From Bdellovibrionales bacterium (GTDB lineage: Bacteria > Bdellovibrionota > Bdellovibrionia > Bdellovibrionales > UBA1609), in NCBI GenBank assembly GCA_050246815.1, contig JBFWVI010000020.1:1-53907 (forward strand): 53,907 bases of DNA, in the 5' to 3' direction. The position numbers and the translations under genes are program-made. The notes under the pieces are model-generated. The model was not told the origin of the DNA. It did no database searches and saw only the letters and a program-made list of their open reading frames with translations. Of the stretch, positions 11,406 to 25,845 are shown piece by piece (position 1 is the first letter of the stretch; each line of letters starts with the position of its first letter).

Positions 11406-13535
11406 CTAGCGCTCTCGACCCCTCACTTGAAAGTGCACGACGTCCAGGGCTTTACCTTGTCGATCGACCAACTCCAGCTTGAAACGGCCTGGATAGGGTG
11501 TCCAACCGACTTCCGTCTGGGCTTTTGCCAAGCGCCGACCATTTAGGCGCAAAACCTGGTGCGCTTCCGGCTCATTGACGGTGAAATAAATTTTTTGTTG
11601 CTTGAGCGGTATATCCGGATCCAAAGCGACCATGGTCTGGTCAACCGGATAGAGCAAACGTGACTGGGCTTGTCGCATAACGCGAATCGTTTCGCCAGGC
11701 GGCTCTGTGCCGTTGATAAACCATTCTTCGATGGTTTGATTTGAGTCTGAAAAGCGAACTTTTTTCGTGCTCACCCCAAGAGGGCGTGTGGGCGCAATAC
11801 TGGTTTCGCGCTGATGCAAAAAGTTCATGATTTCCATCCACGCTGGGGCCGCCCCTTGCACTCCGGACACATTCCACATCGCAGCGCCGGTTAAATTACC
11901 GGCCCACACCCCGACCGTGTAGCGCTTCGAATAACCCACGCACCAGTTGTCACGCATGTCTTTGCTTGTTCCGGTTTTCACAGCCGTCCAATAGCGTGTG
12001 GCCAATGCGTTTTCCCAACCAAAGGTGGCGCCGCGGCTGCCACGATCGGCAATCATGTCACTGACGATAAAGGCGGCTTCTGGCGAAAGAGCTTGCCGCG
12101 ATTCAGCTTGGATTGAATCGTCTTGTAAAAATCGCAACGGCGACCAGCGCCCTTCGTTGGCCAGGCTGCGATAGGCATTGCTCAGCTCCAGCAGCCGCAC
12201 ATCAACAGAACCCAAAGCAACGCTTGGGCCATAAAAATCGGCTCGTTGCAAACCTGTAAATCCTAATTCGTTTAAAAGTTCCACAGCTTTTTCCACAGTC
12301 ACAGCCTCAAGCACCTTTACTGCTGGAATATTGAGGCTGCTGGCCAAAGCAACGCGGGCACTGACGTTGTTACGAAAACGACGATCGTAGTTCGCCGGCC
12401 GATAAAGACCCGTCGAAACCGCCACGTCCGTCGGTGTGTCGGGCAAAACTGAAGCTGCTGTGATCAGCTTTTTCTGCAAAGCCAAGCCGTAGATAAACGG
12501 CTTTAAGGTTGAACCAGCTTGTCTCTGTGCAAAGGCCGCGTCCACATGTGGCGAAGCCGATTTTTCGCCAATGTTGCCAACATAAGCCAGAACATCTCCG
12601 GTGGCGTTGTCTAAAACAACGGCCGACGCATCGGTTAAATTTTGTTCTCTGAGTCGCGACACCTGCTCGTTCAAAATGTCTCGCACCTTGACTTGCAACT
12701 CACGCTTCAGCGTTGTGACGACTCGTCCTTCTAAGCGTTCTTTCGGCAAATGCCTCATCAAATGCGGTGCCAATCTTTCCAATGGCTTGATCCAATACGA
12801 CGAAGATAGGCTTTTTGCGAGCGCTTCAGGCGGTTGGCAGGGGCTTGAGATATCGGCCATGATCCAGCACGTGCGAGATAAAACTTTGTCCGCGCTGGCG
12901 TTGGGCGCGCGAATCAATGACGTAACAACCGCAGACTCCCAATCTGTCAGGGCCAATGGGTCTTTGCCAAAAATTCCTTGCGCCGCTGCTGCGATTCCCT
13001 GTAACTCTCCGCGGAAGTATAGCAAATTTAAATAGGCTTCAAAAATTTGGCTTTTACTCCATCTCTGTTCAAGACCTATAGCCGCGTGCATCTGCTTTAG
13101 TTTTTGAGCCAAACTTCGGCGCTGCCCGCCCTTACCTCCGCGCTGAAGCAGCTCCACAAGTTGCATACTAATCGTGCTGGCTCCGCGGTAATGGCGGCCA
13201 GTTAAAGAAATCAGCGCCACTTTTGCAAAGGCGAAAACGTCTACTCCAAAGTGATTGTAAAAGCGTTTGTCTTCGGCGCGCAAAATCATTTTCTGTAACG
13301 CGTAGGGCACATGGTCTAAACTCGTCCATGGCAATCGGCGCACCGTGCTCAGCTGCCGCGCCTCATGCAAAACCAAACCATCGCGGTCCAGTAGCACCAA
13401 CTCAGAAGAACGATAGGCCCGCTGAACCGCTTTGAACATTTTGGGTTGCGGTGAGCCCCAAAAGACAAAGGCCGCTGCGCTGACAGCGGCCAGAGTGAAA
13501 ATCGCGATTGGCAGCAGCCTCCGCTGGTGTTTCAT
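11406..13535 (-). CDS. pbpC: Penicillin-binding protein 1C
   Basis: Transglycosylase EDKRFY and GASTISMQ; transpeptidase GSTLKP, SLN and KTGTS; C-terminal BiPBP_C-like domain; directly downstream of alpha-2-macroglobulin. Confidence 0.95.
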   Translation of the reverse strand: MKHQRRLLPIAIFTLAAVSAAAFVFWGSPQPKMFKAVQRAYRSSELVLLDRDGLVLHEARQLSTVRRLPWTSLDHVPYALQKMILRAEDKRFYNHFGVDVFAFAKVALISLTGRHYRGASTISMQLVELLQRGGKGGQRRSLAQKLKQMHAAIGLEQRWSKSQIFEAYLNLLYFRGELQGIAAAAQGIFGKDPLALTDWESAVVTSLIRAPNASADKVLSRTCWIMADISSPCQPPEALAKSLSSSYWIKPLERLAPHLMRHLPKERLEGRVVTTLKRELQVKVRDILNEQVSRLREQNLTDASAVVLDNATGDVLAYVGNIGEKSASPHVDAAFAQRQAGSTLKPFIYGLALQKKLITAASVLPDTPTDVAVSTGLYRPANYDRRFRNNVSARVALASSLNIPAVKVLEAVTVEKAVELLNELGFTGLQRADFYGPSVALGSVDVRLLELSNAYRSLANEGRWSPLRFLQDDSIQAESRQALSPEAAFIVSDMIADRGSRGATFGWENALATRYWTAVKTGTSKDMRDNWCVGYSKRYTVGVWAGNLTGAAMWNVSGVQGAAPAWMEIMNFLHQRETSIAPTRPLGVSTKKVRFSDSNQTIEEWFINGTEPPGETIRVMRQAQSRLLYPVDQTMVALDPDIPLKQQKIYFTVNEPEAHQVLRLNGRRLAKAQTEVGWTPYPGRFKLELVDRQGKALDVVHFQVRGRER

Positions 13536-13537
13536 GA

Positions 13538-16500
13538 TTACGGTTGCACCGTCCAGATCCCGTTCGCGATCTCCGCAAAGGTCTCTGGAGTGTACATGGC
13601 TTCCAGGCGAGTGGCGGGTACATTAAAGGTTCCGCTCACGTTCAGCTGGTAGCGATAAATCACTTCAAACTCAGAGGTCGGAATGAAGCCATAAATCGCG
13701 CGGTAACCGTCGTAGCTTTTTTCATCGTAGTCGGGCCACATCCAGCCGGTCGAGCGAGGATCCTCCGCCTGCAAACCACTGTTTAGAATTTTTGCGCCCG
13801 AGGGAATTGGGTCGAACAAGGCCACTTGCGCAGTTGGCGCCAAGCCCTTGACCTTCAAAGTCACCTCAATCACATCACCACGCGACCATTTACCGGCCAC
13901 CGCTTGACGAACGGGCTTCACGCTTTTGCGAACTTGCAGCCCCACGAACTCGCCATTGGGTTTGGGTGGAACAGCCGCCACAGTGGCGATCATGGACCAT
14001 GGCTTACCCTCCCCACGATGCGAGACCGTCACTTGGCCAGCACCACCGGCAGGCCACGAGAAATCGGTCACGGCGCCCGTCAGATTTTTGCTCCAATCCA
14101 CCTCTTTGTGGACCGCGGCCAAATCGATCAGTGTGGTGCCACTCACTTTGCCGGCTTCGATCACTTTGGCGAATTGGCGTAAGGCCACAGCAGACCACGC
14201 ATTGGTCACGGGTAAATCCCAGGCCCCACCACGAAGATAATTCATCAAACCCGCCTGCAAGCGGGGCAGATCTTGGCTCCATGCCTTAACAAGCTCAGGA
14301 CTCGACAGGGCCAATGAAATCAAACGCGATTGCGAGCCCGCACGCGAGCTGAGCAGCCACCAAATGGCCTTGGTGTCCGGCGCGATCTCAAGTCTCGTGC
14401 CGACCAGGGTCAAGCGGGCGCGAATGGCCGCGCTGTAGGCCTGACTTTGTTCGACAGCAACTTGATTGGTGCTGACGGCATAAATCACACGAATCAAATC
14501 AAGCAAGCTCGCCGTCGGCATCTCGCCAACTGGCGGCAAGCTCAAAGTCTTCAGCCATTCTGCTTTGGCCAAATCGTAACGGCTCAATGCCGCCATCGCT
14601 GAAATTCGACGCAACAACAATTCGCGATCGCTCATGTCGCTAAGCCGTTCGCGGCGCAAACGACCTTCCGCCAACTGAGTTAAGGCTGCGAGCATACGCT
14701 GCTGGTCAGCTTGCGGAATTTCGAAGCCGGCATCTTTTGCGATCGCCAGCACATAGGCGGTGAAGTCAAAGCTGCCTTTTTCAGCGCTTGGATACCACTT
14801 CAGTAAACCATCGGCGTCCAATTGGCCGCTAAGCTTGTTCATCGCCACAGACCAGACTTTGACATCGTTGGTGGCCACTGCTTGCGACACCAGGGTTTCA
14901 AGGCTGATGCATAAATAATTGTCGAAGTATTGTTTCACACTCTCAAGCCCGCGAGCCAAGGAGTCGATCAAGGTCACACGAACTCCGCCCAAAGACGGAT
15001 CCGCGCCCTGCGGACGTTCTACGCCCACAACCACTGCTTTCCCACCGAGTTGCTCAAGCTGGGACATCTGAGTTCGCGCCACTAAAAGCGGCTTAATCTC
15101 TTGCGAAATCACCATACGATCTTTTTGACCCGAATCGCCTTCGACCGTGTATTGATATTCTGCTTTGACCGCGCCACTTGGCACGTTGACATCACCCATC
15201 ACCAAAGTTTGCGCGCTACCGGCGGCAAGCTGGGCTTGCTTTTCACCTATCTGCACGACTTGTTTGCGCCCATCGGCGAAAGTAAAGGTCACCTGACCCG
15301 ACACACGGGTGCCAATGGATTTTTTGGTGGTGTTACGAACGGTCATATCGGCGCTGAATTTATCGCCTTGTCGAGCCAGTTGCGCTTGAGCAGGAATGGC
15401 GATCAAATCTTGAGTGGCTGAAATCGACGTATGCCCGCTGCCAAACTGAGCGGTACCGCTTTGTGCAACGGCCACAACACGGAATTTAGTCAGCGAATCA
15501 TTCAGCTTGAATTTTACTGTGGCTTCGCCTTGCTCGTTCAAACGAACACGGCCTTGCCACGAAACGAGTGTGTCAAAAAGCTCACGGGTGATTTGCGAGC
15601 CACCATCACCACCATGAGCGACCGCCTTTTGGCCGAAGTGGCGCTTACCAACCACTTGCATTTGCGCTGTGGAGGTCTGAACGCCCCAGGGGCGACGACC
15701 CATCATCGCTTCAAGCAAATTCCAAGAGTTGTTCGGTTGCAGCTGCAACAAGCCTTCATCCACAACAGCCAAAGCGAATTCGCCTTTGGCTGGTTTACCC
15801 TTAGAGTCTTTCACTTGCACACGCACTGTGGCCTCTTCGCGCGGCTGATAGATTTCTTTATTCGGAGTCAAGGCGACCTTCAGCTCATGAGCGGCCCACT
15901 TCACAAAAAGTTGCGCCACACCCATTTTGAAGGCCGGCTTATTCAGGTCGACGATGAACTCTTGCCCGGGGCGATACTTTTCGCCTTCCGAATCCGGCAT
16001 GCGACCGCGCACCAAGAAAGTCGAAACAAAGACGTTCGGAGCATAGCTGTCTTTTAAGGGCACTTCCACAACCGGATTGGTTCCCGACAAGCTGACCACT
16101 TTGGCGTCGATCACACCTTCGCGCTCAGTGGTGACCAATGCCGTGGCTTCGCGGAACGGCATACGAACCTGAAGTCGCGCGGTCTGACCGGGTTCATAGC
16201 GGCGCTGCTCAGGAATCAGATCGATGCGATCTGTGTCTTGAGCCTCAAACCAAAAGTCATCTTTGCCACGTAACCAAACCGAAGAGTTAGCAAAAGCCAC
16301 TCGGCCCTTGCTGTCGGCGGCCTGAGCCATCAGGCGCAACTGCCCCGAAGCGTTGGCGCGCACGGTGCAAAACACCAAGCCTCGTGCATCACTGACGCCA
16401 GAGCAGTTGGCGCTTATGTTTTGCGGTTTGGTTTCGGTGACGTGTTCGTAAGCGTAGAATCCACCCACCAAACGTTTGCGATGAGAATAGGTTTCCACCT

Positions 16501-19222
16501 TAAAGCCGCTCAGGCTGACGGCCACGCCGGCCACCGGACGTTGCTTCAAGTCTAGAACCACGGCTTGCAATTGGATGTCTTTGTCTGCTGCAACCCAGTT
16601 TTCAGAACGCAGGCCCAACAGCAAATCCGATGGCCACACCGTGGCACTGCGGCCCACGGTTTGGATTTCGCCGTTGGCGTCGCGAAATTCCATCTCCATG
16701 TTGATGGCTTTGGGCGCGGTCAACCCGCTTAAGCCAGAAATCTTCACGACACCAGCGCCTGTGCTGCTGAGTTTTGTTTTTTGCGTGATCACTTCATCTT
16801 TTTTCTCGGCATTATCTTGGCCGCTGCGTTCTACGCCAGGTTCAACCTTGCCATCCATAAAATCGAAGTCCCGATAGTCTTCAACCGGTGTGAAGTTTGA
16901 ATCCATCACATGATGGCGAAACACCACATCTAAATTCGAGGCGGGACCGCCGTTTTGATAGGCCACGGTCAGCTGCGGTTCGATCTGGCCGGGTTGCACC
17001 AAAGCCTGCTTTGGCAATGAAATCATTGCTCTCATCAAAGGAATCTTAAATTCCTCAACCTTAAAAGAGCCGGCACTTTGACGATCTTCATAATTCTTGC
17101 CGCCGTTTTTAGTCAAAATAACTTCATAGACGCCAAGCTTAGCGTCCTTGGGCAAAGTCAAAACCGTCTCGGCAACGGAGATGGCCTTGTCCCAATTTAA
17201 GGGCAAGGTGTATTTGGCACCACTACCTTGGTGTTCCACAATCACTTGTGACGGCAGATTTTTTTCTTCAACTGCCAGCAAGCCCTGACTGGTCGGGCGG
17301 CGTAGCAGATGCTTCATGTGCACGGTTTCACCGGCGCGCAGCAGAGTGCGGGCAAAAATGGTGTGGGCCAAGTTTTGTGAACGCTCCCACATCGGGCTGG
17401 TCGAAGGTAAATTGCCAAAACGATAGGCCTCTAAGCCGTCACCCCAACCTGTGTGTGTGAAGGTGAAGTCTCTCTCCTTTTGGGCGGTGACAAAAAATCC
17501 AGAGCGGTACGGGCCATAATGGCCGTCTTTTTGACAGCCTTCGACCTTCAAGATGTTTTTCAAGTTGGCCGGATAGCGGACCAAGCCATCCTTATCCGAG
17601 ATGCCTTGCCAAACTTGTTGGCCCGCGCAGTTATGCACTCGCACGGCGGCCCCCGCCACGGGGCGACCATGATCCAAAGACGTCACCCAAAAGAGCGAGG
17701 ATTCAAGACCCCATTTCAAGTGAATCGCCATGTTGGTCACCAGCGCACCTGTTGGCACATACATCTGACGGTCTTCGCCCATCAGTGAATTGCCCAGAAT
17801 TTTGCTTTCCAATTCAACCACATAGAATCCGGGGCCAGGCAATGGAATGCCAACCACCTCAAAGGTGTTGCCCTTATTTTTCAAGGGAATGTCGAAGCGT
17901 TTTTTATCTTTGCTTTGTTGCAGTAAGGACTTGCCACGATCTTCGTAGTCATTGCGCTCGCTTAAGCGCTGCATCCACTTAATAACCTCCGCAAAATTAT
18001 TCGCGTTTAATTTAACCGATGCACCGCCAACGCTTGCGCCGGCATAATTGCCGATCACTTTTGCTTCCAAATTGCGAAGTGTGGCCGGCAACAGGTTGGG
18101 CTTTTCGCTCGCTTCGATCACCCCGAAGTTCGCAGCAAATTTCGCTAGTGGCGGAAATGCGGCTGTTTTGACTGCCAAAGGAAACATTTTCGAATTGGAT
18201 AGGGCCCGGCCCGAGTCATCGATCATGTTGGCGGGCATTTCAATTTTAAAGCTGCCACCTTCTTTAAAAGGGCCCGAAAAGGTCACGCGGGTCACAGTTT
18301 TTTCGTTGCTGCGGGCACGATCCGGATGGATCACTTTGCCGTCCGCACCAACCAAGCGAACCTGTTTGGCTAGATCGGCCGAAACCGGCTCTGAGAATTC
18401 GATCTCGAGGGGCATCAAAGGCGAGCAGTCCGCTTTGGCGTTTTCGCGAGTGCAAGTGAATTGGGCACGCAACTCTTCACGAACCACAAAGGCATAAGAG
18501 GCCTTGGTCTGGCGCGCTTTGCCACCATTTGAGGCCACAATTCCAGGCCCCCAAACCAAAGAGACCTTGCTTTTAATTGCAAAGGCTTCGCGGGCCTGTA
18601 CAAGGACCACTGGGGTTTTCAAATCACGCGAGCCGAATTCAGCCTTTAAGATCTCTTGGCGCTGGATACCTTCGATCAATCGCACGGGGACGGCCGAGGA
18701 TTTGCCCGTCACCTCAAAATAAACATTTTTCAAGACCGTGTTCATATCAACGTTAGTGTCGAGCAGTAAAACAAAGATTTGGTCTTCGCTGATCACCGGC
18801 GCGTCTGCGCTCCAGCTGGACGGCATCACGCGAAGGACGTTGGGTCCGTCTATTTGAAAAGCAAAGGTGGTCGAACCCGAGATGCTGGCGCCGGCCAGGC
18901 TCTTAACGTCTTTTTTCAATTGAATTTGGCAGCTGGTTCCCCCCGGCAAGAAGTTGCCTTCTAGTTCGGTGTCGAAATCAAAGATCCAGGTTTTATCGTC
19001 GTTCCAACGAGCCCGGCCTTGAACTTGTGGCACGCAGTTCAGATTGAAAAGGTCCGCGTTCTGCGACGGCGCAGAAAGATTAATCATTTTATCACTGAAG
19101 CTGACGCGAATTTGGTTCGCGGTGTTGCTTAAGTTTTGCGGGGACACGCGGGTGATCGTCGCGGCGATCACAGTTGTATGCGCAAATAAAGTAACCAACA
19201 TCAAACTGATTAAGGCCTTCAT
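13538..19222 (-). CDS. Bacterial alpha-2-macroglobulin family protein
   Basis: About 1,890 aa; LLRAGETVH, VEEFK, AVVDEG, RELFDT and LNDSLTKFRV; C-terminal ATRLEAMYTPE; coupled to pbpC; AGGAG RBS. Confidence 0.93.
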   Translation of the reverse strand: MKALISLMLVTLFAHTTVIAATITRVSPQNLSNTANQIRVSFSDKMINLSAPSQNADLFNLNCVPQVQGRARWNDDKTWIFDFDTELEGNFLPGGTSCQIQLKKDVKSLAGASISGSTTFAFQIDGPNVLRVMPSSWSADAPVISEDQIFVLLLDTNVDMNTVLKNVYFEVTGKSSAVPVRLIEGIQRQEILKAEFGSRDLKTPVVLVQAREAFAIKSKVSLVWGPGIVASNGGKARQTKASYAFVVREELRAQFTCTRENAKADCSPLMPLEIEFSEPVSADLAKQVRLVGADGKVIHPDRARSNEKTVTRVTFSGPFKEGGSFKIEMPANMIDDSGRALSNSKMFPLAVKTAAFPPLAKFAANFGVIEASEKPNLLPATLRNLEAKVIGNYAGASVGGASVKLNANNFAEVIKWMQRLSERNDYEDRGKSLLQQSKDKKRFDIPLKNKGNTFEVVGIPLPGPGFYVVELESKILGNSLMGEDRQMYVPTGALVTNMAIHLKWGLESSLFWVTSLDHGRPVAGAAVRVHNCAGQQVWQGISDKDGLVRYPANLKNILKVEGCQKDGHYGPYRSGFFVTAQKERDFTFTHTGWGDGLEAYRFGNLPSTSPMWERSQNLAHTIFARTLLRAGETVHMKHLLRRPTSQGLLAVEEKNLPSQVIVEHQGSGAKYTLPLNWDKAISVAETVLTLPKDAKLGVYEVILTKNGGKNYEDRQSAGSFKVEEFKIPLMRAMISLPKQALVQPGQIEPQLTVAYQNGGPASNLDVVFRHHVMDSNFTPVEDYRDFDFMDGKVEPGVERSGQDNAEKKDEVITQKTKLSSTGAGVVKISGLSGLTAPKAINMEMEFRDANGEIQTVGRSATVWPSDLLLGLRSENWVAADKDIQLQAVVLDLKQRPVAGVAVSLSGFKVETYSHRKRLVGGFYAYEHVTETKPQNISANCSGVSDARGLVFCTVRANASGQLRLMAQAADSKGRVAFANSSVWLRGKDDFWFEAQDTDRIDLIPEQRRYEPGQTARLQVRMPFREATALVTTEREGVIDAKVVSLSGTNPVVEVPLKDSYAPNVFVSTFLVRGRMPDSEGEKYRPGQEFIVDLNKPAFKMGVAQLFVKWAAHELKVALTPNKEIYQPREEATVRVQVKDSKGKPAKGEFALAVVDEGLLQLQPNNSWNLLEAMMGRRPWGVQTSTAQMQVVGKRHFGQKAVAHGGDGGSQITRELFDTLVSWQGRVRLNEQGEATVKFKLNDSLTKFRVVAVAQSGTAQFGSGHTSISATQDLIAIPAQAQLARQGDKFSADMTVRNTTKKSIGTRVSGQVTFTFADGRKQVVQIGEKQAQLAAGSAQTLVMGDVNVPSGAVKAEYQYTVEGDSGQKDRMVISQEIKPLLVARTQMSQLEQLGGKAVVVGVERPQGADPSLGGVRVTLIDSLARGLESVKQYFDNYLCISLETLVSQAVATNDVKVWSVAMNKLSGQLDADGLLKWYPSAEKGSFDFTAYVLAIAKDAGFEIPQADQQRMLAALTQLAEGRLRRERLSDMSDRELLLRRISAMAALSRYDLAKAEWLKTLSLPPVGEMPTASLLDLIRVIYAVSTNQVAVEQSQAYSAAIRARLTLVGTRLEIAPDTKAIWWLLSSRAGSQSRLISLALSSPELVKAWSQDLPRLQAGLMNYLRGGAWDLPVTNAWSAVALRQFAKVIEAGKVSGTTLIDLAAVHKEVDWSKNLTGAVTDFSWPAGGAGQVTVSHRGEGKPWSMIATVAAVPPKPNGEFVGLQVRKSVKPVRQAVAGKWSRGDVIEVTLKVKGLAPTAQVALFDPIPSGAKILNSGLQAEDPRSTGWMWPDYDEKSYDGYRAIYGFIPTSEFEVIYRYQLNVSGTFNVPATRLEAMYTPETFAEIANGIWTVQP

Positions 19223-19453
19223 TTCGGTGCTCCTAAAAATGGGGGAACGTTCTTGTTTGTGGCGTAGTTCTGCTGACAATCGCGGGGACTCGCAACGGCT
19301 ATTTGCATTGTGTAAAGAAAATGATTCTTTCGTGTTCGGCGATGAAATTTCTTTATGAACAGCTCCTTTGGGCGCATAGCGTTAGTCGGCAAATTAAGTA
19401 TAGCCGCTGATTTCCTGGCTTCGCTTGCGTCTTAAATTTCCTCTTTTGCAGCA

Positions 19454-19473
19454 ATGTAAAATAGACTTTACAT
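19454..19473. promoter_or_regulatory. Palindromic operator (ATGTAAA-N6-TTTACAT), probable autoregulatory site of the XRE regulator
   Basis: Perfect 7-bp inverted repeat about 30 bp upstream of the XRE start codon. Confidence 0.55.
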
Positions 19474-19502
19474 CAAGAAACAACTCTTTTACGGTGCTCT
19501 TC

Positions 19503-19736
19503 ATGCCACGAATTGAAGGAAAGTTGAACCTTAGCAATCGAATCCCGAGCTTGCGCGCAGAGCAGAACCTGACTCAGCAACAGCTGGCTGAAGCAGTGGA
19601 CGTAACCCGCGCCACGGTCATTGCGCTTGAAAAAGGAAGCTACAATCCCTCACTCGAATTGGCATTCCGCTTGGCCAAATTTTTCAGGACCAGCGTTGAT
19701 TATTTATTTTATGAAAAAGGGGCCCGAGATGACTAA
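19503..19736 (+). CDS. XRE-family helix-turn-helix regulator
   Basis: [39 protein letters not shown]. Confidence 0.93.
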
Positions 19737-20325
19737 AGCTATACGCTATTTGCAAAACTATTTGATCCTCGCCTTGCCTTTTGTGGTGGCTATCATGGTG
19801 TGGGGAACGCTGCAGCCAGAAGAGATCGTGAATCAAAATCCGTCCTGGTTGGTCCGTGGTCTATGGGAGGTCATGGCCTGGAATCTGATGGCCTGGTTTG
19901 CGTTGTTGATTGTCTTTTTAATCTGCTTGGTCGCATTACCGCAGGCGCGCGAAAAAACCCTAAAGCGCCTCGCTCGCCTTAAAGAGCGTGACGAGCGCGA
20001 ACAATACATCACCGGTCGCGCGGCCCGTGCCACCTACCTGTCGACTTTAAGCGTTTTGATTTTGTTTTTGTTCATTTCAATCTTCAAATTCGATATCACA
20101 AAAAAACCAATCGCTGAAATGCCCGAGGGTAAACGCGGCGTCGTGAGTATCGGTCTTAACTTCAAGCTGACCGATGAAGTGCAAAAAGTGCAAAGCGAAT
20201 CGGGCGAAGTTTTATTTGAATCAAAGGATTTCCCGCTTTCAAAATCCGCGTTGATCCTGTTGCTCATTCTTTGGCAAATGGCATCGTTTCATTTTTTTGC
20301 CAAAAAAGAAGCCTTGCTTGATTAA
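19729..20325 (+). CDS. Membrane protein (DUF2178-like) paired with the XRE regulator
   Basis: Four TM segments; RDERE motif typical of XRE-associated membrane proteins; overlaps the XRE gene. Confidence 0.7.
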
Positions 20326-20804
20326 CGATGCGGGCGACGACGGCGCTGAGACTTCGTGAGCCAATCTGAAATATAGCCCGCATATTTCTTGCGGGTTGCT
20401 CTGGGCATGTTCGAGTAGTTGCCGATCCATCTTCGGCAGATCGGTGAGCCACAACGACAGCGCATTTTCCACCAGTCGTTTTTTTCGGTCATCTCATAGT
20501 CCCAGGTGATTTGCTCACCTGGAGCAATGGCCCGCATAGCGACGATTTTAAAAAGATCTTTGATGCCGCAGTTGGGATCGCAAGAGTGGTTCACCAAGCG
20601 CGCGATGCCCTTCGAATCCCGCCAGCAGGCCTTTTGAAATTGAATGGCGTGATTTAAAAGGTCTTCGGTCCAAGGCTCAAAATCATCATCCAAAATGACC
20701 CCATCAAAAACCGCGATGACTTCGTTTTTTCGAATCGGCTTGATAGCGTAAACGCCACGGCCAAATTTTTTAGTGCGCCGAACGGCGACCTTACGGCTGT
20801 CCAT
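20322..20804 (-). CDS. SET-domain protein-lysine methyltransferase with post-SET motif
   Basis: GRGVYA, RLVNHSCDPN, EQITWDY and CRCGSPICR. Confidence 0.92.
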   Translation of the reverse strand: MDSRKVAVRRTKKFGRGVYAIKPIRKNEVIAVFDGVILDDDFEPWTEDLLNHAIQFQKACWRDSKGIARLVNHSCDPNCGIKDLFKIVAMRAIAPGEQITWDYEMTEKNDWWKMRCRCGSPICRRWIGNYSNMPRATRKKYAGYISDWLTKSQRRRRPHR

Positions 20805-20930
20805 TTCACCCTAATGTAATTTCTCTACGTTCTTTATTCATGCTTCGAACCAAATAAATGCGGCGCATTGACCGCGACGCATTAATCATTTAAGGATTTC
20901 CATCTATTTCAGTAGTTCTGGAGGCTTGAG

Positions 20931-23900
20931 ATGATCGGGCGGGTGCTTTGTTTGAGTCTTTTTTTGGCTACTGCCGCCCAGGCTGAATCCGACCGAAACC
21001 CGGCAGAACTGGGCAACTACACCAAGGCGGAAATCTTATTGGCTCGGTACGGAAACGAAGCTCGCCAAAAGCTCTTCGCCAAGGCTCTTGAAGTTCGAAC
21101 AATTACGAACCAGCACATTGTCGGCCAAGACCACCTGGCCGCCGCCCTGCAAATTCGATTGGTTCAGTACCTGAATTCCGTTGGTACTCGCAAAGAAGAA
21201 CCGGTCGCCTTACACATCATCGGCCTGCCGGGCGTTGGTAAAACATCGCTCTTGGCGGTGCTGGACGAATTGGGCTTTCCAGTGGTGCGACTTGACGCAC
21301 AGAAGTTTTCCGGCGGCGAACAGTCCGGATCCTCGTACTTTCTGATGCAGGCCCTTGAACAAACCTTGCGTCTAAGAACTCATCCGGATCAGCCCTTGAT
21401 TTTATTTGTGGATGAGCTGGATAAAGTTCCCGAAATTAAACTTTCCGAAAACGGTAAAGAGGTCTCTCAACCCGTCATCGCCTCGCTGAACGAGATTTTG
21501 TCCGAGGGTAAGCTGGCCAACAGCAATATTTTGGGCCGGGTAATGGATTTTTCGAATGTTTTTATTTTGACCGCGATGAATTTTTCGCCAGTGCAAATCG
21601 AAAGTTTTTCGAAACAAAGTCTGGGCAAAACAAAAAGCTTCTGGGACTACACCGAAGCTGACCTCGCTAAATTTGACAAGTGGATTCGTTCTTCTTCGAC
21701 CTCTCAATCCTCGGTTGCCAAAGTGATGGCCCTGCTCTTTCGCTCAAACACGATTAGCCGCATGATCCCCGATGCGATGGTTGCAAAATCGCTTTTTGCC
21801 GACGATTTCGATCAAATTGTCGGCAAAAACATCGAAACCGTTGTTAACCGGATCGCCGGTAAAAGTAACCGCCTGCAAGTGACCCACACTTCCGCCTACA
21901 CCGAATTTTTGCGTCGAGTGAGCGTTTACGCCCCTTCGGGGGCCCGCATGACGGTCAAGAGAGTTGACCTGCTGACCGAACAATTGGTGACCGTCGCGAT
22001 GCACGCCAACCTTCAGGACGACGAAAGCCTTGCGCTGCCCAGACAAATTGTGCTGGATTTCGAAAAATCAGGTACCCATGCCGTTATTCGGATTCAAGCG
22101 CTCTCGGGCAGCGGCCCTCGCGCCCGAGTGCGTTCACAAGGCGATGTGAAGGTCCTCTACAACTCCTCCACGGGCTCCTTTGAACTTCCGATGGATGCTT
22201 TAAAACCTCTGCCCGCAAGGCTGGCCAAAAACGCACAAGATCAGGATAAAAAACTCAGCTCCCGCAAAATCACGGTCGCCCAAGTCCGAACTCACCGTCG
22301 TTTACTTGAGAACAACCATGACCTGGCCAAACACCTGAACAGAGTCATTTTCGGACAACCTGAATTGGCCAGCCAGCTGGACGAAAACCTGCATCTGTAC
22401 ATGAATTCCGAGGAAGAGGTCTTGCGCTATCAAACCGTGCCCGGCTTTACCGGGGTTGGCAAAAGCGCGATTGTCATTGAAGCCGCTAAAAAACTTGGCA
22501 TTGAGTTGGTCAAACTGAATATGCAGCACTACTCGGGGGATTCACAAGAAGCTGCGGATCGTTTTGCCGAAGATCTCTACCTCCAGATCGAGGAAGCTCA
22601 GCGCAAGTCGCCTAAGGGCAAGTACATTTTACTGCTTGAAGAAACGGACAAAGCTTTCGAAATCGATCCTGGCAACGGCAGCAACACCAAGCGCCCCGCC
22701 ATGGCCGTGCTAAAGGATCTGCTAGACAAAGGCACCAGCACGGTGACGCTGAAATCGCGCTGGGACCAAGCCGAGCGAAAAGTGATCGACATCCGCACAG
22801 GCTATATGGTCTTGACCATGAACTTCCCTGTCGATCATTTTGATCTTAAGGCCGATCCTCGCCTGACGACCATCGAAGATATGCAGCGTGTACATCATGA
22901 TGTTTCAAGTTCCCCTGAAGCTCTGCGTTCTTTGTTCACCAGCATGTTCTTGCCTGACACCGTCAATCGGCTTCTTGCGGCCAGTACGCAGGTTGCACGC
23001 CCGCTGGATCGGTTGGGTTATGAACAAGTGCTGCGCGCCCAAATTAATGAAGCACTTGTCGCTCTTTCGTCCGGTGAGACCGGCAAAAAAAATCACGGCG
23101 CTTTGAAGGTTGAAATGACTGCCGCCTACTTTAACCAATACCTTTTCGCAGAATCTGTGATTCCCTCAGAAGGCGGGCGCCAAGCCGCCAATACGGCCAA
23201 AACGCTGTTGATTCGCGATTTGCTTGAGGCTGTCGCCGCTTTGCCTAAGGGCTCCACTCTTTACGGACATCCGCTGACCATCACACTTGATTATGCAGCA
23301 AAAAGTAGAACCTCGGGGCCACGCGTGTTGGCCACAGCCCGCTTGACCTCGGGCAAAGCCTCTTCGCGAAGAGCGCTCTTCAAAAGTCCACGAAAACTGC
23401 GCTTTCCGCCGGTACAAGAGTTCGGCAACTTGGAAGCCCAAAGAATTTTGATCACCGCGCACGAGTTTGGCCATGCGATGGCCGCCGTGATGCATGGCTT
23501 TCGCATCGAACATGCGGTGGCCGTTTCGCCCGTGCCGTCGATCGGCGGCTATGTGAAACCGAAACGAAATCTTAATCCCACAGGCGCGACGCTGCTGGCC
23601 GACCTGATGGTGAGCCTGGGCTCCATCGCCATGGAAAGGCTAATCTTCAGCGACACTCCGACCGAGCCCACTTCAATGCTCGAAATTTCACACGGACCCA
23701 ATCAAGATATTCAGATGGCAACAAAAGCGATTTGGAAAATCATCCACCAATACGGCATGGATCCGGACGGGGGCATTATAGAGCGCTCTGGCCTTAAAGG
23801 CGAGCATCGCGAATTGTATGATAAGCGAGAGTACTTTTTTGCTGAATTGCCAGATGAAAAAATTGAACAGCTGTCTTTGGTTGTACGCGATCTTGTGGAT

Positions 23901-24281
23901 CATCTGGTTTTGCAAATGCAACAGGCCCATTCGCAAGATTGGTACCGCACAAAAATCGTCGACTTTGCGCGCAAGGGCGCCGTGAACGAAAAAGAACTCT
24001 ACGCACTGATCGACTACCCCTTTCCGGGCGAAAATAATATCTTTCTGGGCGAAGATCTGCGCGTGAACCGTGAGTTCAAAGCCGAGCTTGCAATCGAACC
24101 CGAAAGTGTCAGCACTGCCCGCCGATTTAAGCAGGGAGAACATAAAAAAACCGCATCTGAAAATATGCGCGACACCTTAGACGTCTTTATTGCCTCTTTG
24201 AGCAAGCGGCTGCACCCCACCGCAGTGGGTGGTGCGTGCGACGCAGCACTCGCTGCTGGGGCTAGCGAATCGAAGAAATAG
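20931..24281 (+). CDS. Signal-peptide-bearing tandem AAA+ (ClpB-D2-like x2) / peptidase M41 fusion
   Basis: Walker A GLPGVGKT and GFTGVGKS; Walker B FVDELDK and LLEETDK; HEFGH zincin motif with FtsH-like downstream motifs; N-terminal MIGRVLCLSLFLATAAQA. Confidence 0.85.
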   Translation: MIGRVLCLSLFLATAAQAESDRNPAELGNYTKAEILLARYGNEARQKLFAKALEVRTITNQHIVGQDHLAAALQIRLVQYLNSVGTRKEEPVALHIIGLPGVGKTSLLAVLDELGFPVVRLDAQKFSGGEQSGSSYFLMQALEQTLRLRTHPDQPLILFVDELDKVPEIKLSENGKEVSQPVIASLNEILSEGKLANSNILGRVMDFSNVFILTAMNFSPVQIESFSKQSLGKTKSFWDYTEADLAKFDKWIRSSSTSQSSVAKVMALLFRSNTISRMIPDAMVAKSLFADDFDQIVGKNIETVVNRIAGKSNRLQVTHTSAYTEFLRRVSVYAPSGARMTVKRVDLLTEQLVTVAMHANLQDDESLALPRQIVLDFEKSGTHAVIRIQALSGSGPRARVRSQGDVKVLYNSSTGSFELPMDALKPLPARLAKNAQDQDKKLSSRKITVAQVRTHRRLLENNHDLAKHLNRVIFGQPELASQLDENLHLYMNSEEEVLRYQTVPGFTGVGKSAIVIEAAKKLGIELVKLNMQHYSGDSQEAADRFAEDLYLQIEEAQRKSPKGKYILLLEETDKAFEIDPGNGSNTKRPAMAVLKDLLDKGTSTVTLKSRWDQAERKVIDIRTGYMVLTMNFPVDHFDLKADPRLTTIEDMQRVHHDVSSSPEALRSLFTSMFLPDTVNRLLAASTQVARPLDRLGYEQVLRAQINEALVALSSGETGKKNHGALKVEMTAAYFNQYLFAESVIPSEGGRQAANTAKTLLIRDLLEAVAALPKGSTLYGHPLTITLDYAAKSRTSGPRVLATARLTSGKASSRRALFKSPRKLRFPPVQEFGNLEAQRILITAHEFGHAMAAVMHGFRIEHAVAVSPVPSIGGYVKPKRNLNPTGATLLADLMVSLGSIAMERLIFSDTPTEPTSMLEISHGPNQDIQMATKAIWKIIHQYGMDPDGGIIERSGLKGEHRELYDKREYFFAELPDEKIEQLSLVVRDLVDHLVLQMQQAHSQDWYRTKIVDFARKGAVNEKELYALIDYPFPGENNIFLGEDLRVNREFKAELAIEPESVSTARRFKQGEHKKTASENMRDTLDVFIASLSKRLHPTAVGGACDAALAAGASESKK

Positions 24282-24537: not shown

Positions 24538-24684
24538 ACAGTGAGTAAATTCAAACCCTGTGCCCCTTTAGAGGCTTTATATCGCTTGGGCAGACGGCTG
24601 CCACTGTCACCTTTTACAATCTGCTTAAAAGTTGGACGTGGCTATTTGACAGCTGGTACAAGCCTTACTTTCCGGGGAGGAAAA

Positions 24685-25152
24685 ATGACGACGCGCCTCT
24701 TGTTTATGACTCTTATTTTGACCTTGGCCGCCAAGGCCCACGCCACAATTTTAGATGAAACCCGAACCGATGACGTGAATCAAAGTTCGGTGCACATCAA
24801 ATGCCAGCTTCAAGATATGGATCTGGCGGAATTTGCGGCTCATACAAAAATCGTCATTCACACCGAATTCGGCGACGATGCGCCGAATGCAGAGGTCTAT
24901 GGGACGGACAAAAAATTAGACGCAAATATCACAATGACGGATTTTTCAGACCATCCGCATCTGAATATGCGAATTTTTGTTCTGCTGAACATGGAAACCG
25001 ATCAGATCACCAACTTGATCGTGGTCTACAGCAAACAAAACGGCCGCATTCAGGCCACTGGTGTTTTGACCACAAATGGCCAGCCCAACCCTGTGGTCAA
25101 TGCCCGTGACATGAAGTGCGAATACGTAGGCCCCATGGCCATTAATGGTTAA
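24685..25152 (+). CDS. Secreted beta-rich hypothetical protein
   Basis: GGAGG RBS; signal peptide ending AHA; one Cys pair. Confidence 0.75.
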   Translation: MTTRLLFMTLILTLAAKAHATILDETRTDDVNQSSVHIKCQLQDMDLAEFAAHTKIVIHTEFGDDAPNAEVYGTDKKLDANITMTDFSDHPHLNMRIFVLLNMETDQITNLIVVYSKQNGRIQATGVLTTNGQPNPVVNARDMKCEYVGPMAING

Positions 25153-25161
25153 GCAAAAAAA

Positions 25162-25845
25162 ATGAGCACTGGGCCCGGCCCTCAGCATTTGATCCGCGAA
25201 AACTGGCTAACCCGTGCGCCCAAGCCCTGGGCGGGCTTTGTTATGATTTTGCTGACACTTCTTTTGATGCTAGCAAATTTCTTTTACTGGAATGGCTACG
25301 CTCAGGCGGACCAGTGGATGCCATCTAGCTTTCATACTGTGATGGACCGACATGAATTTTGGCGCCTTTGGACCGCGCTATTTGCACACGGAGATTTGGG
25401 GCATTTGCTGAGCAATTCAATTTTATTCTTACCGCTAACTTACTTGCTATCCGGTTACTACGGGCTTTTATTTTTTCCCGTTGCTGGATTGTTGGTGGGC
25501 GGCTTGGTCAACGCTATGGTGATTCAGTTTTTGCCCCCACAAGCCTCTTTGTTGGGCATGTCTGGCGTGGTTTATTGGATGGGTGCAGCCTGGCTGACAC
25601 TTTATTTTTTGGTGGATCGACGCGAAGCTTGGCGACGACGTTTTGCCGTTGTGGCTTTTTTAGCCGTCATGCTTTTTGCGCCTGAAACCTACAAACCAGA
25701 GATCAGTTACTTAAGTCATCTTCTTGGTTTTGTTCTTGGCATCTTCAGCGCTTTTGCTTTGTGGTGGCTGCGCCGCCGTGAATTTGAAAGGGCCGAGGTT
25801 TTAGAAGAATTTTTTGAGCGCGATGAGCCTGGCGCTATCCCTTGA
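25162..25845 (+). CDS. Rhomboid intramembrane serine protease
   Basis: FWRLWTALFAHGDLGHLLSN, catalytic GMSG and SHLLGF. Confidence 0.92.
   Translation: MSTGPGPQHLIRENWLTRAPKPWAGFVMILLTLLLMLANFFYWNGYAQADQWMPSSFHTVMDRHEFWRLWTALFAHGDLGHLLSNSILFLPLTYLLSGYYGLLFFPVAGLLVGGLVNAMVIQFLPPQASLLGMSGVVYWMGAAWLTLYFLVDRREAWRRRFAVVAFLAVMLFAPETYKPEISYLSHLLGFVLGIFSAFALWWLRRREFERAEVLEEFFERDEPGAIP

Follow-up and report, generated by a model that had tools for sequence, protein, structure and literature searches.

Adenosine triphosphate (ATP)-dependent proteases of bacteria, in the textbook set FtsH, Lon, ClpXP/AP and HslUV, are cytoplasmic, where the ATP is, and the bacterial envelope is served by ATP-independent proteases, e.g. 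DegP. We know of no bacterial ATP-driven protease that operates outside the cytoplasm. The gene described here is located at positions 20931..24281 of the forward strand of a 53,907-nucleotide stretch of DNA from a Bdellovibrionales bacterium (assembly GCA_050246815.1, contig JBFWVI010000020.1), and this whole stretch is called the window in the following. Its predicted product joins two ClpB-D2-type AAA+ modules to an FtsH-type M41 zinc protease, behind a leader that is likely to be a Sec signal. The reading that we prefer, with a rough probability of 0.45, is that the mature AAA+ zinc protease of ~1100 residues would work outside the cytoplasm of the producer and would be powered by prey-derived ATP.

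The protease part is best compared with FtsH and family M41 of MEROPS (E. coli FtsH, T. thermophilus 2dhr, T. maritima 2ce7, YME1 and AFG3L2), which have the same protease domain as the window protein. The HExxH motif, the downstream Glu and Asp, the GM..G lid region and the placing of ATPase and protease on one chain are shared. FtsH contains one AAA domain of the classic clade and two transmembrane helices, with its bulk in the cytoplasm, whereas the window protein contains two modules of the HCLR clade and a leader, and no transmembrane pair. The motor part is best compared with the D2 modules of the Hsp100/Clp proteins (ClpA, ClpB and ClpC; also ClpX and Skd3). The VxGQ lead-in, the Walker A and B motifs, the sensor-1 Asn, the D2-small subdomain, the Arg in F.P..(N/S)R, the GAR sensor-2 and the presence of two AAA+ modules are common to both. 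Unlike class I Hsp100/Clp proteins, the window protein has D2 and D2 instead of D1 and D2, lacks Clp_N and the aromatic pore-1 loop, bears a leader and has its protease fused to the chain, not separate as is ClpP.

HSP101 (ClpB2) of the Plasmodium PTEX is an ATP-driven ClpB-type AAA+ protein located beyond the plasma membrane, in the vacuole round the intracellular parasite (PMC7355975, cited in part). It is unlike the window protein in being eukaryotic, in having D1 and D2, a middle domain and pore loops with Tyr, in delivering to a membrane pore and in carrying no protease. Torsins are described, in the portion of PMC7175109 used here, as the only AAA+ proteins residing in the network of the endoplasmic reticulum and nuclear envelope, and, according to a portion of PMC4999309, they are weak ATPases that need the activators LAP1/LULL1. 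Like the family of the window protein, torsins are Clp-D2-like AAA+ proteins with a signal sequence, and they are lumenal. They have one module and no protease. In the family of the window protein, the Arg at the finger position is invariant. The Pfam Torsin profile (PF06309) matches 13/30 family members (best E=9.4e-12) and also several of the sister proteins described below; the window protein gives no match to it at E<=1, and no torsin chain occurs among the best 60 PDB profile matches. Finally, FtsH copies of phytoplasmas are predicted to face the host cytoplasm, and the degradation of host proteins has been proposed for them (PMC6981957, cited in part). They share with the proposal for the window protein an ATP-dependent M41 protease and a predicted exposure to a host compartment that contains ATP. 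Unlike the window family, they are canonical one-module enzymes on which, in that part of the source, topology programs disagree; they form no family with a cleavable signal and are kin only through the M41 domain.

Architecture of the predicted chimeric protease

The gene is one unbroken open reading frame of 1116 residues with an ATG start. The next in-frame ATG of the translation is found only at ~residue 139, so the hydrophobic N-terminus is part of the protein. As predicted from the translation, the product is a chimera of two ClpB-D2-type AAA+ modules and an FtsH-type M41 zinc protease, with the following features:

20920..20924 (+): Shine-Dalgarno sequence GGAGG, read directly, 6 nt before the ATG; it supports the start that includes the leader
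20931..20984 (+): residues 1-18 (MIGR / VLCLSLFLATA / AQA), a predicted Sec/SPase-I signal peptide with cleavage expected before E19
21018..22259 (+): AAA+ module 1, residues 30-443, ClpB/ClpX-type large and small subdomains with a beta-rich end
21222..21245 (+): Walker A of module 1, GLPGVGKT, residues 98-105, motif G..G.GK[ST]
21399..21425 (+): Walker B of module 1, LILFVDELDK core with D161 and E162, [DE]E-x-DK kept
22260..23405 (+): AAA+ module 2, residues 444-825, paralog of module 1
22443..22466 (+): Walker A of module 2, GFTGVGKS, residues 505-512, position read in the translation
22626..22652 (+): Walker B of module 2, ILLLEETDK with E570 and E571, Glu-Glu in place of Asp-Glu
23406..23930 (+): FtsH-type M41 zinc-protease domain, residues 826-1000, from Pfam PF01434, BLASTP to the genome's own FtsH and a domain model
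23460-23474 (+): HEFGH, residues 844-848, zinc motif of the M41 domain
23634-23636 (+): E902 (in IAMERL), downstream acidic residue of the M41 domain
23706-23708 (+): D926 (in QDIQMAT), downstream acidic residue of the M41 domain
23931..24278 (+): helical, family-specific C-terminal extension, residues 1001-1116, with a conserved Cys near its end

Further motifs are HIVGQDH (62-68), FRSNTISR (270-277) and SGAR (336-339) in module 1, and VIFGQPE (472-478), FLPDTVNR (673-680) and EGGR (747-750) in module 2.

Pfam recognizes AAA in two stretches of the 1116-residue protein (E=1e-17) and gives no Clp_N match at E<=1. When a profile of 11 relatives is compared with PDB sequences, module 1 (52-225 and 264-334) aligns onto the D2 of Thermus ClpB (1qvr, 547-716) and module 2 (458-538) onto the D2 of ClpA (439-525). 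With a 30-member profile, the second nucleotide-binding domain (NBD2) of HSP101 (7e-20) and the D2 of Thermus ClpB (7.6e-20) are tied for module 1. Because HSP101 ties with an ordinary ClpB, no special kinship is indicated, and the resemblance to HSP101 is an analogy of place, not of descent. In NCBIfam, residues 459-535 align with ClpA positions 445-524 at a score far under the equivalog cut-off. The two modules are 25% identical over 338 residues (E=5e-16), and since both are D2-like and mutual paralogs, the protein is D2-D2 and not D1-D2. The AlphaFold model of the whole protein has a mean pLDDT of 77.1 and a pTM of 0.49, and its top Foldseek matches are ClpA, ClpC and ClpB (E down to 4.4e-17); HSP101 is also among the Foldseek matches. 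In VIA-align, module 2 (model residues 444-820) superposes on the human Skd3 NBD with Z 22.6 (3.7 A, 306 residues) and on the Thermus ClpB NBD2 with Z 21.4 (3.6 A, 288 residues), and module 1 (model residues 40-390) on ClpX with Z 20.5 (4.0 A, 300 residues).

The C-terminal part matches Pfam Peptidase_M41 (PF01434) over residues 836-955 with 35.7 bits, the gathering cut-off being 29.9, and a match at E<=0.001 is found in 21/30 family members. Residues 805-995 align with the FtsH protease domain in the profile comparison with the PDB (FtsH 2dhr, E=2.1e-14, 30-member profile), and in NCBIfam residues 835-991 align with FtsH positions 415-564, the protease part only. The FtsH equivalog TIGR01241 gives 30.6 bits against a cut-off of 600, and the protein is thus not FtsH proper. 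The same genome retains a separate canonical FtsH of 662 residues on contig C1; BLASTP between the two aligns HEFGH with HEAGH, AMERL with AAEEL and QDIQMAT with NDIERAT. In M41 peptidases the third zinc ligand is either the Glu of ..AEE.. or the Asp of ..NDI.., and which of them acts is debated. Three database searches and 15 genome loci supplied the 35 non-redundant relatives in which conservation was read, 3 identical or contained rows having been dropped; the identities of these relatives range over 31-54%. HExGH is present in 35/35 of these, E902 in 34/35 and D926 in 35/35. Modelled alone with 14 sequences, the C-terminal 291 residues give a pLDDT of 81.7 and a pTM of 0.82. Foldseek returns 40 matches at E<=0.001 for this model (best E=1.4e-6), and among the matches listed every chain is FtsH, AFG3L2, YME1 or from an FtsHi complex, with a superposition on FtsH-family chains that is moderate (TM score ~0.46, root-mean-square deviation ~7 A).

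These results agree with the initial annotation, which had been made from the sequence alone and had proposed a fusion of two D2-type AAA+ modules with M41. The motifs that it quoted are all found in the checked translation at the places given, including HEFGH at 23460-23474, and the second Walker B does read EE (E570 E571). The ClpB-D2-like hallmarks claimed for both modules are matched by the PDB profiles, which align both to D2. The FtsH protease motifs claimed for the C-terminus are confirmed by the Pfam score above the cut-off and by HExGH in all 35 relatives, and the structure matches agree with the chimera as a whole.

C1103 (24237-24239) is the sole Cys of the mature protein and is placed ~14 residues before the C-terminus. 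An equivalent is present in most Bdellovibrionota-type members and absent from the Elusimicrobiota-type clade of the family, in which 4/5 members have no Cys after the leader and, in the fifth (L010), residue 788 is the only one. In an oxidising compartment C1103 might, speculatively, form a disulfide between subunits.

The leader and the cellular location

The leader of the window protein (MIGRVLCLSLFLATAAQA, followed by E) consists of a basic n-region, a 12-residue hydrophobic core and an A-x-A site. Leaders were scored by a heuristic of our own, which is not a trained predictor and which looks within the first ~35 residues for a basic n-region, a core of 7-15 hydrophobic residues and small residues at -3/-1. 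It was applied to 30 full-length members; this set leaves out five gene calls truncated at the N-terminus and includes two over-long ones trimmed to an internal Met. The character of the leader is kept in 30/30, while its sequence is not conserved. The core is 13 residues long at the median (range 10-23), cleavage is predicted after residue 23 (median), Ala occupies -1 in 24/30 and K/R occurs in the n-region in 26/30. In all readable genome loci (14/14, L007 being masked) a short run with basic residues opens the protein and is followed by a hydrophobic core and then a small-x-Ala site; these sequences cannot be aligned with one another. In P0025-27 a leader was read by eye in all three. No second hydrophobic segment (19-residue Kyte-Doolittle mean >=1.6) is found in the window protein, and the relatives have none except for one borderline stretch in the Ala/Pro-rich linker of L009. 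The initial annotation had described a Sec-type signal with no further transmembrane segment and had regarded a signal that is not conserved as evidence to the contrary; the leader persists in every full-length member scored and in the three read by eye, with no second segment in the window protein.

The leader is likely to be a cleaved Sec signal, and from it the export of the mature protein is predicted. Alternatively, the N-terminus may be an uncleaved anchor with the bulk of the protein on the cytoplasmic face, which would make it a single-pass, FtsH-like tethered protease of quality control whose motor is doubled. A membrane tether has its model in FtsH, and an enzyme facing the cytoplasm would have ATP at hand. 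At least 20 uncharged residues in a row are present at the N-terminus of 15/30 members; however, the core is short (median 13), and the window protein contains no 19-residue segment with a Kyte-Doolittle mean of >=1.6. Several members (L005, L015 and P0020) are strongly basic after the core, which by the positive-inside rule indicates an N-out orientation, whereas the small-x-small site with Ala at -1 (24/30) and the K/R before the core (26/30) are the anatomy of a cleaved signal, N-in. A membrane anchor is disfavoured by the shortness of the core and by the conserved -3/-1 pattern; anchors have no reason to conserve such anatomy, and it recurs in 21/21 sister proteins. The Elusimicrobiota-type clade has a linker of 142-210 residues, mostly Ala/Pro-rich, between leader and core in 5/5 members, and this linker could be a tether. 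Leaderless fusions of D2-type and FtsH-type parts also exist: P0029 (1145 residues) and P0038 (1161 residues) combine a module of the ClpB-D2 type with a middle region and a full classic FtsH unit, AAA and M41, that has the motifs HEAGH and GGRAAE. These two represent a separate Clp-FtsH fusion architecture, presumably a cytoplasmic one. Taken together, we consider the anchor improbable.

A soluble, cytoplasmic Clp-FtsH hybrid, whose leader would stem from a wrongly called start or be a non-functional relic, is in our estimate very improbable. Every other known bacterial ATP-dependent protease is cytoplasmic, and five members (P0002, P0012, P0013, P0023 and P0024) have no leader in their database forms. 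However, these five are N-truncated gene calls that also miss conserved core sequence. The GGAGG is well spaced from the ATG of the leader, with no other ATG before ~residue 139, and a relic would not keep its character across 30/30 members and three sister families.

ATPase sites, energy supply and place of action

The Walker A motif is intact in 32/32 relatives covering the region in module 1 and in 34/35 relatives in module 2, where one reads GFPGNAKT. The Walker B of module 1 has the form [DE]E-x-DK with E162, D164 and K165 invariant in the 35-relative alignment, and that of module 2 has EE in 34/35 and DD in 1. The sensor-1 Asn, the Arg of F-x-x-x-T-x-x-R (R277/R680) and the sensor-2 G-[AGS]-R are kept throughout. 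As judged from this alignment, conservation is strong at the two ATPase sites and at the zinc site, and with intact ATPase sites the enzyme would need ATP. The periplasm is generally regarded as lacking ATP, and the exported enzyme would therefore depend on an outside source, which for predators would be the prey. Ruby and McCabe reportedly described in 1986 (cited in PMC13689555) an ATP transport system in B. bacteriovorus 109J, which suggests that external ATP is physiologically available there. As to place, HSP101 in the vacuole of the malaria parasite, the torsins in the endoplasmic reticulum and the phytoplasma FtsH copies with their predicted host-facing side are precedents for AAA+ machines that meet ATP beyond the cytoplasm of their producer.

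In the proposed mechanism, the protein would be exported by Sec and cleaved between AQA and E, would fold and would bind zinc. Subsequently, it would assemble into a ring, probably a hexamer as in the Clp and FtsH families, with two ATPase tiers stacked upon a protease chamber. Substrate would then be fed into the chamber in an ATP-driven manner, as expected from what is known of Clp and FtsH. The ATP would most plausibly come from the prey cell or the bdelloplast, where predators feed, and would be reached either by onward secretion or by prey nucleotides leaking through porins. Digestion of prey proteins would likely take place there, and delivery into the prey may reasonably be inferred.

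Several observations weigh against a prey-powered enzyme of this kind. The stretch from Walker A to Walker B, which in ClpB D2 holds the GYVG pore-loop region, is hypervariable in length and sequence. The textbook aromatic-hydrophobic-Gly motif of the pore-1 loop was searched for between Walker A and Walker B, with shuffled segments and positive controls; it occurs in 2/66 family modules, which does not exceed chance (193/3300 shuffles), and the control Clp-type ATPases of the same genome, on contigs C5 and C43, give PGYVGY. As read from these segments, the family keeps the ATPase engine without the canonical substrate grip. The crude leader filter is unspecific, flagging 671/2130 open reading frames without transmembrane segments in the same genome, and K/R is found within +1..+5 of the chosen site in 23/30 members, a residue type that is unfavourable just after the cleavage site of Sec substrates. 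The gene is patchy, occurring in 13/400 other genomes of the phylum and 11/203 genera in an even phylum sample, in 2/27 genomes of its own family and in 0/1 of its own genus; from this occurrence it is not a core predation gene. One well-supported clade of the family sits in Elusimicrobiota-labelled metagenome-assembled genomes, and to our knowledge Elusimicrobiota are not known predators. No neighbouring gene is common to three or more of the 15 loci, which leaves no linked secretion partner or ATP supplier. A TLC-type ATP/ADP translocase gave no match in the 99.1%-complete genome, a result that is uninformative because the controls were silent too.

Cys depletion was considered as a marker of export and rejected as weak. 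The genome's own 866-residue Clp-type ATPase on contig C5 also has one Cys, and proteins as depleted as the window protein make up 9/127 of the long leaderless and 12/67 of the long leader-like proteins of the same genome.

Some of these points suit a protein that is exported but kept in the periplasm or envelope of the producer. Its AAA+ modules would act there without sustained ATP turnover, as a nucleotide-stabilised scaffold, holdase or gate, and the protein would be a quality-control or processing protease that is not directed at prey. The leader counts equally for this reading and for the prey-powered enzyme, and the absence of the canonical pore-1 loop for ATP-driven threading (2/66 modules), the patchy occurrence that extends to Elusimicrobiota-labelled genomes and the lack of a conserved secretion partner all fit such a role. 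On the other hand, both complete sets of catalytic ATPase residues, among them the Glu of Walker B, the Arg of sensor-2 and the Arg fingers, are near-invariant at 31-54% identity, which is hard to explain without hydrolysis, and the periplasm is held to lack ATP. Torsins provide a precedent, as lumenal Clp-like AAA+ proteins that can be weak ATPases needing activators (PMC4999309, in the portion cited). We regard retention in the periplasm as rather unlikely.

Sister proteins, distribution and neighbouring genes

The family is small and, as judged from database scores, sharply bounded. In a database of 5.8 billion proteins its members score >1100 bits, the next match 92 bits and ordinary ClpB/ClpC ~75 bits. 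At least 27 clusters were obtained in the protein database searches, in which the members are named only 'AAA family ATPase', 'hypothetical protein' or 'ClpA'. With one genome per species, 15 loci were found; 11 are labelled Bdellovibrionaceae, Bdellovibrionales, Bacteriovoracia or Bacteriovoracaceae, three Elusimicrobia and one 'bacterium'. The copy number in the window's own genome is one.

A quick maximum-likelihood tree of 31 rows, with four rows of <1000 residues left out, the careful search unfinished and midpoint rooting only, places the three Elusimicrobiota-labelled sequences, L006 and P0009 in one clade (SH-aLRT 100). The initial interpretation is supported in part: the Elusimicrobiota-labelled clade and the rare, patchy occurrence within Bdellovibrionota (13/400) speak against a protease confined to predators.

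The M41 domains of five multi-copy genomes of the phylum were all listed, and other long frames of 1168-1544 residues were found among them. Five of these sister proteins were fetched. They consist of AAA_2, ClpB_D2-small and Peptidase_M41, all with a leader, and three of them have three Walker A motifs. When tested with the family's hidden Markov model, three of the five give E=1e-11 to 1e-18 and two give no match, so that the relationship is remote. An alignment of the three-module form finds relatives in 40/401 genomes and 29/203 genera of the phylum, and none in the window's genome. Among 16 further sisters a leader is present in 16/16, an internal start codon that exposes it having been chosen for 5 of the 16, and three strict Walker A motifs in 12/16. 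In total, the sisters (L021-L041, e.g. G144:C37:76463-80812, G328:C35 and G159:C2; 1116-1574 residues, two or three AAA_2 modules) have a leader in 21/21 and three strict Walker A motifs in 15/21. They resemble the window protein in the leader, the AAA_2/ClpB_D2-small modules and M41, and differ from it in that many keep ClpB-like pore loops: GYVGS or GYIGS occurs strictly in 5/21, with aliphatic variants in more. At least 50/401 sampled genomes hold one form or the other, and four (G144, G328, G159 and G398) hold both.

By these comparisons, the gene belongs, as one branch, to a previously unnoticed superfamily in Bdellovibrionota whose members bear leaders and join two or three AAA+ modules to M41, which speaks against a chimeric one-off. 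In the best-sampled genus (g21), 0/26 genomes match either family, and the second M41 protein of the five genomes inspected is a canonical FtsH; this could explain the absence of published descriptions. The literature searched, with most subscription journals outside its scope, yielded no periplasmic, secreted, exported, extracellular or extracytoplasmic AAA+ protein, no pairing of Peptidase_M41 with AAA_2 or ClpB_D2-small and, for Bdellovibrio and the bdelloplast, no description of such proteases. New are the arrangement D2-D2-M41, the leader that is universal in the family and the existence of a superfamily that bears such leaders; the single parts were known before.

A bolder and more tentative proposal is that Bdellovibrionota and the Elusimicrobiota clade hold a superfamily of Sec-exported, self-compartmentalised AAA+ zinc proteases, built of an FtsH-type chamber topped by two or three rings of the Clp-D2 type, that run on extracytoplasmic ATP, in or beside the prey. 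If true, bacteria would for the first time offer an example of ATP-dependent proteolysis outside the cytoplasm, and with it their own counterpart to PTEX HSP101 and the torsins. A superfamily of AAA+ proteases with secretion signals challenges the division of proteolysis between cytoplasm and envelope. It offers the testable idea that predators feeding inside cells use the ATP of the victim to unfold and digest the proteins of the victim. How periplasmic predators dismantle folded prey proteins and whether the bdelloplast has usable ATP become approachable, and structural work would gain a minimal single-chain, two-tier unfoldase-protease.

The window's genome (G000) has two further leader-bearing AAA_2 ATPases without a protease domain, of 795 residues on contig C34 and 909 residues on contig C43, which are barely related to the window protease. 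The former is the last gene (C34:19272-21659; AAA_2-type, 73.5 bits, no Cys) of five co-directional genes at C34:11490-21659 (L042), which encode 207, 1201, 509, 533 and 795 residues, all with signal-like leaders, and overlap by 4 bases at two junctions. The four proteins upstream of the ATPase match no Pfam family, and the run resembles an orphan operon whose products are exported, a Clp-like ATPase of its own among them. The protein on contig C43 (19969-22698, L020) starts with a signal-like leader (MSLDWKILSFCICAVLLPSESWG, followed by AAD) and contains two P-loop regions, AAA_22 at 339-453 and AAA_2/AAA at 610-774.

Two family copies are located ~16 kb apart on the same strand (G158:C4:323954-327190 and 342848-345844) in the Bacteriovoracia-labelled genome of locus L011. 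P0028 (1000 residues), a variant of the L010 protein, diverges straight after HEFGH into unrelated sequence (HVLGFPDEYEVGY) and may be an assembly chimera or a rearranged allele. A tblastn search with module 2 and M41 found no match in 50,697 phage records, and PHROGs and PADLOC gave AAA-level matches only (phrog_4871, 1.8e-10; DolB, 1.3e-8). ESM-Atlas clusters of 581-874 residues that combine M41 with AAA, ClpB_D2-small or AAA_2, from phages, Bacteroidota and Campylobacterota, are candidate leads only. No RNA runs carrying the gene are listed, the only runs being two metagenome DNA runs of one study, and the promoter and terminator scans of the locus were at or below chance.

Upstream of the protease gene, the window encodes an XRE-type helix-turn-helix protein (19425-19736, +) and, divergently, a 160-residue SET-domain protein (20322-20804, -), neither of which is conserved beside the relatives. 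Downstream (24541-25845, +), a 203-residue orphan open reading frame with an internal signal-like stretch (MTTRLLFMTLILTLAAKAHA) is immediately followed by a gene for a rhomboid-family protease. Further upstream (11406-19279, -), a 1913-residue alpha-2-macroglobulin (A2M; domains bMG3, A2M_BRD and bMG10) is followed by a PBP1C-type penicillin-binding protein with the domains Transgly, Transpeptidase and BiPBP_C, which together we take to be the classic A2M/PBP1C pair.

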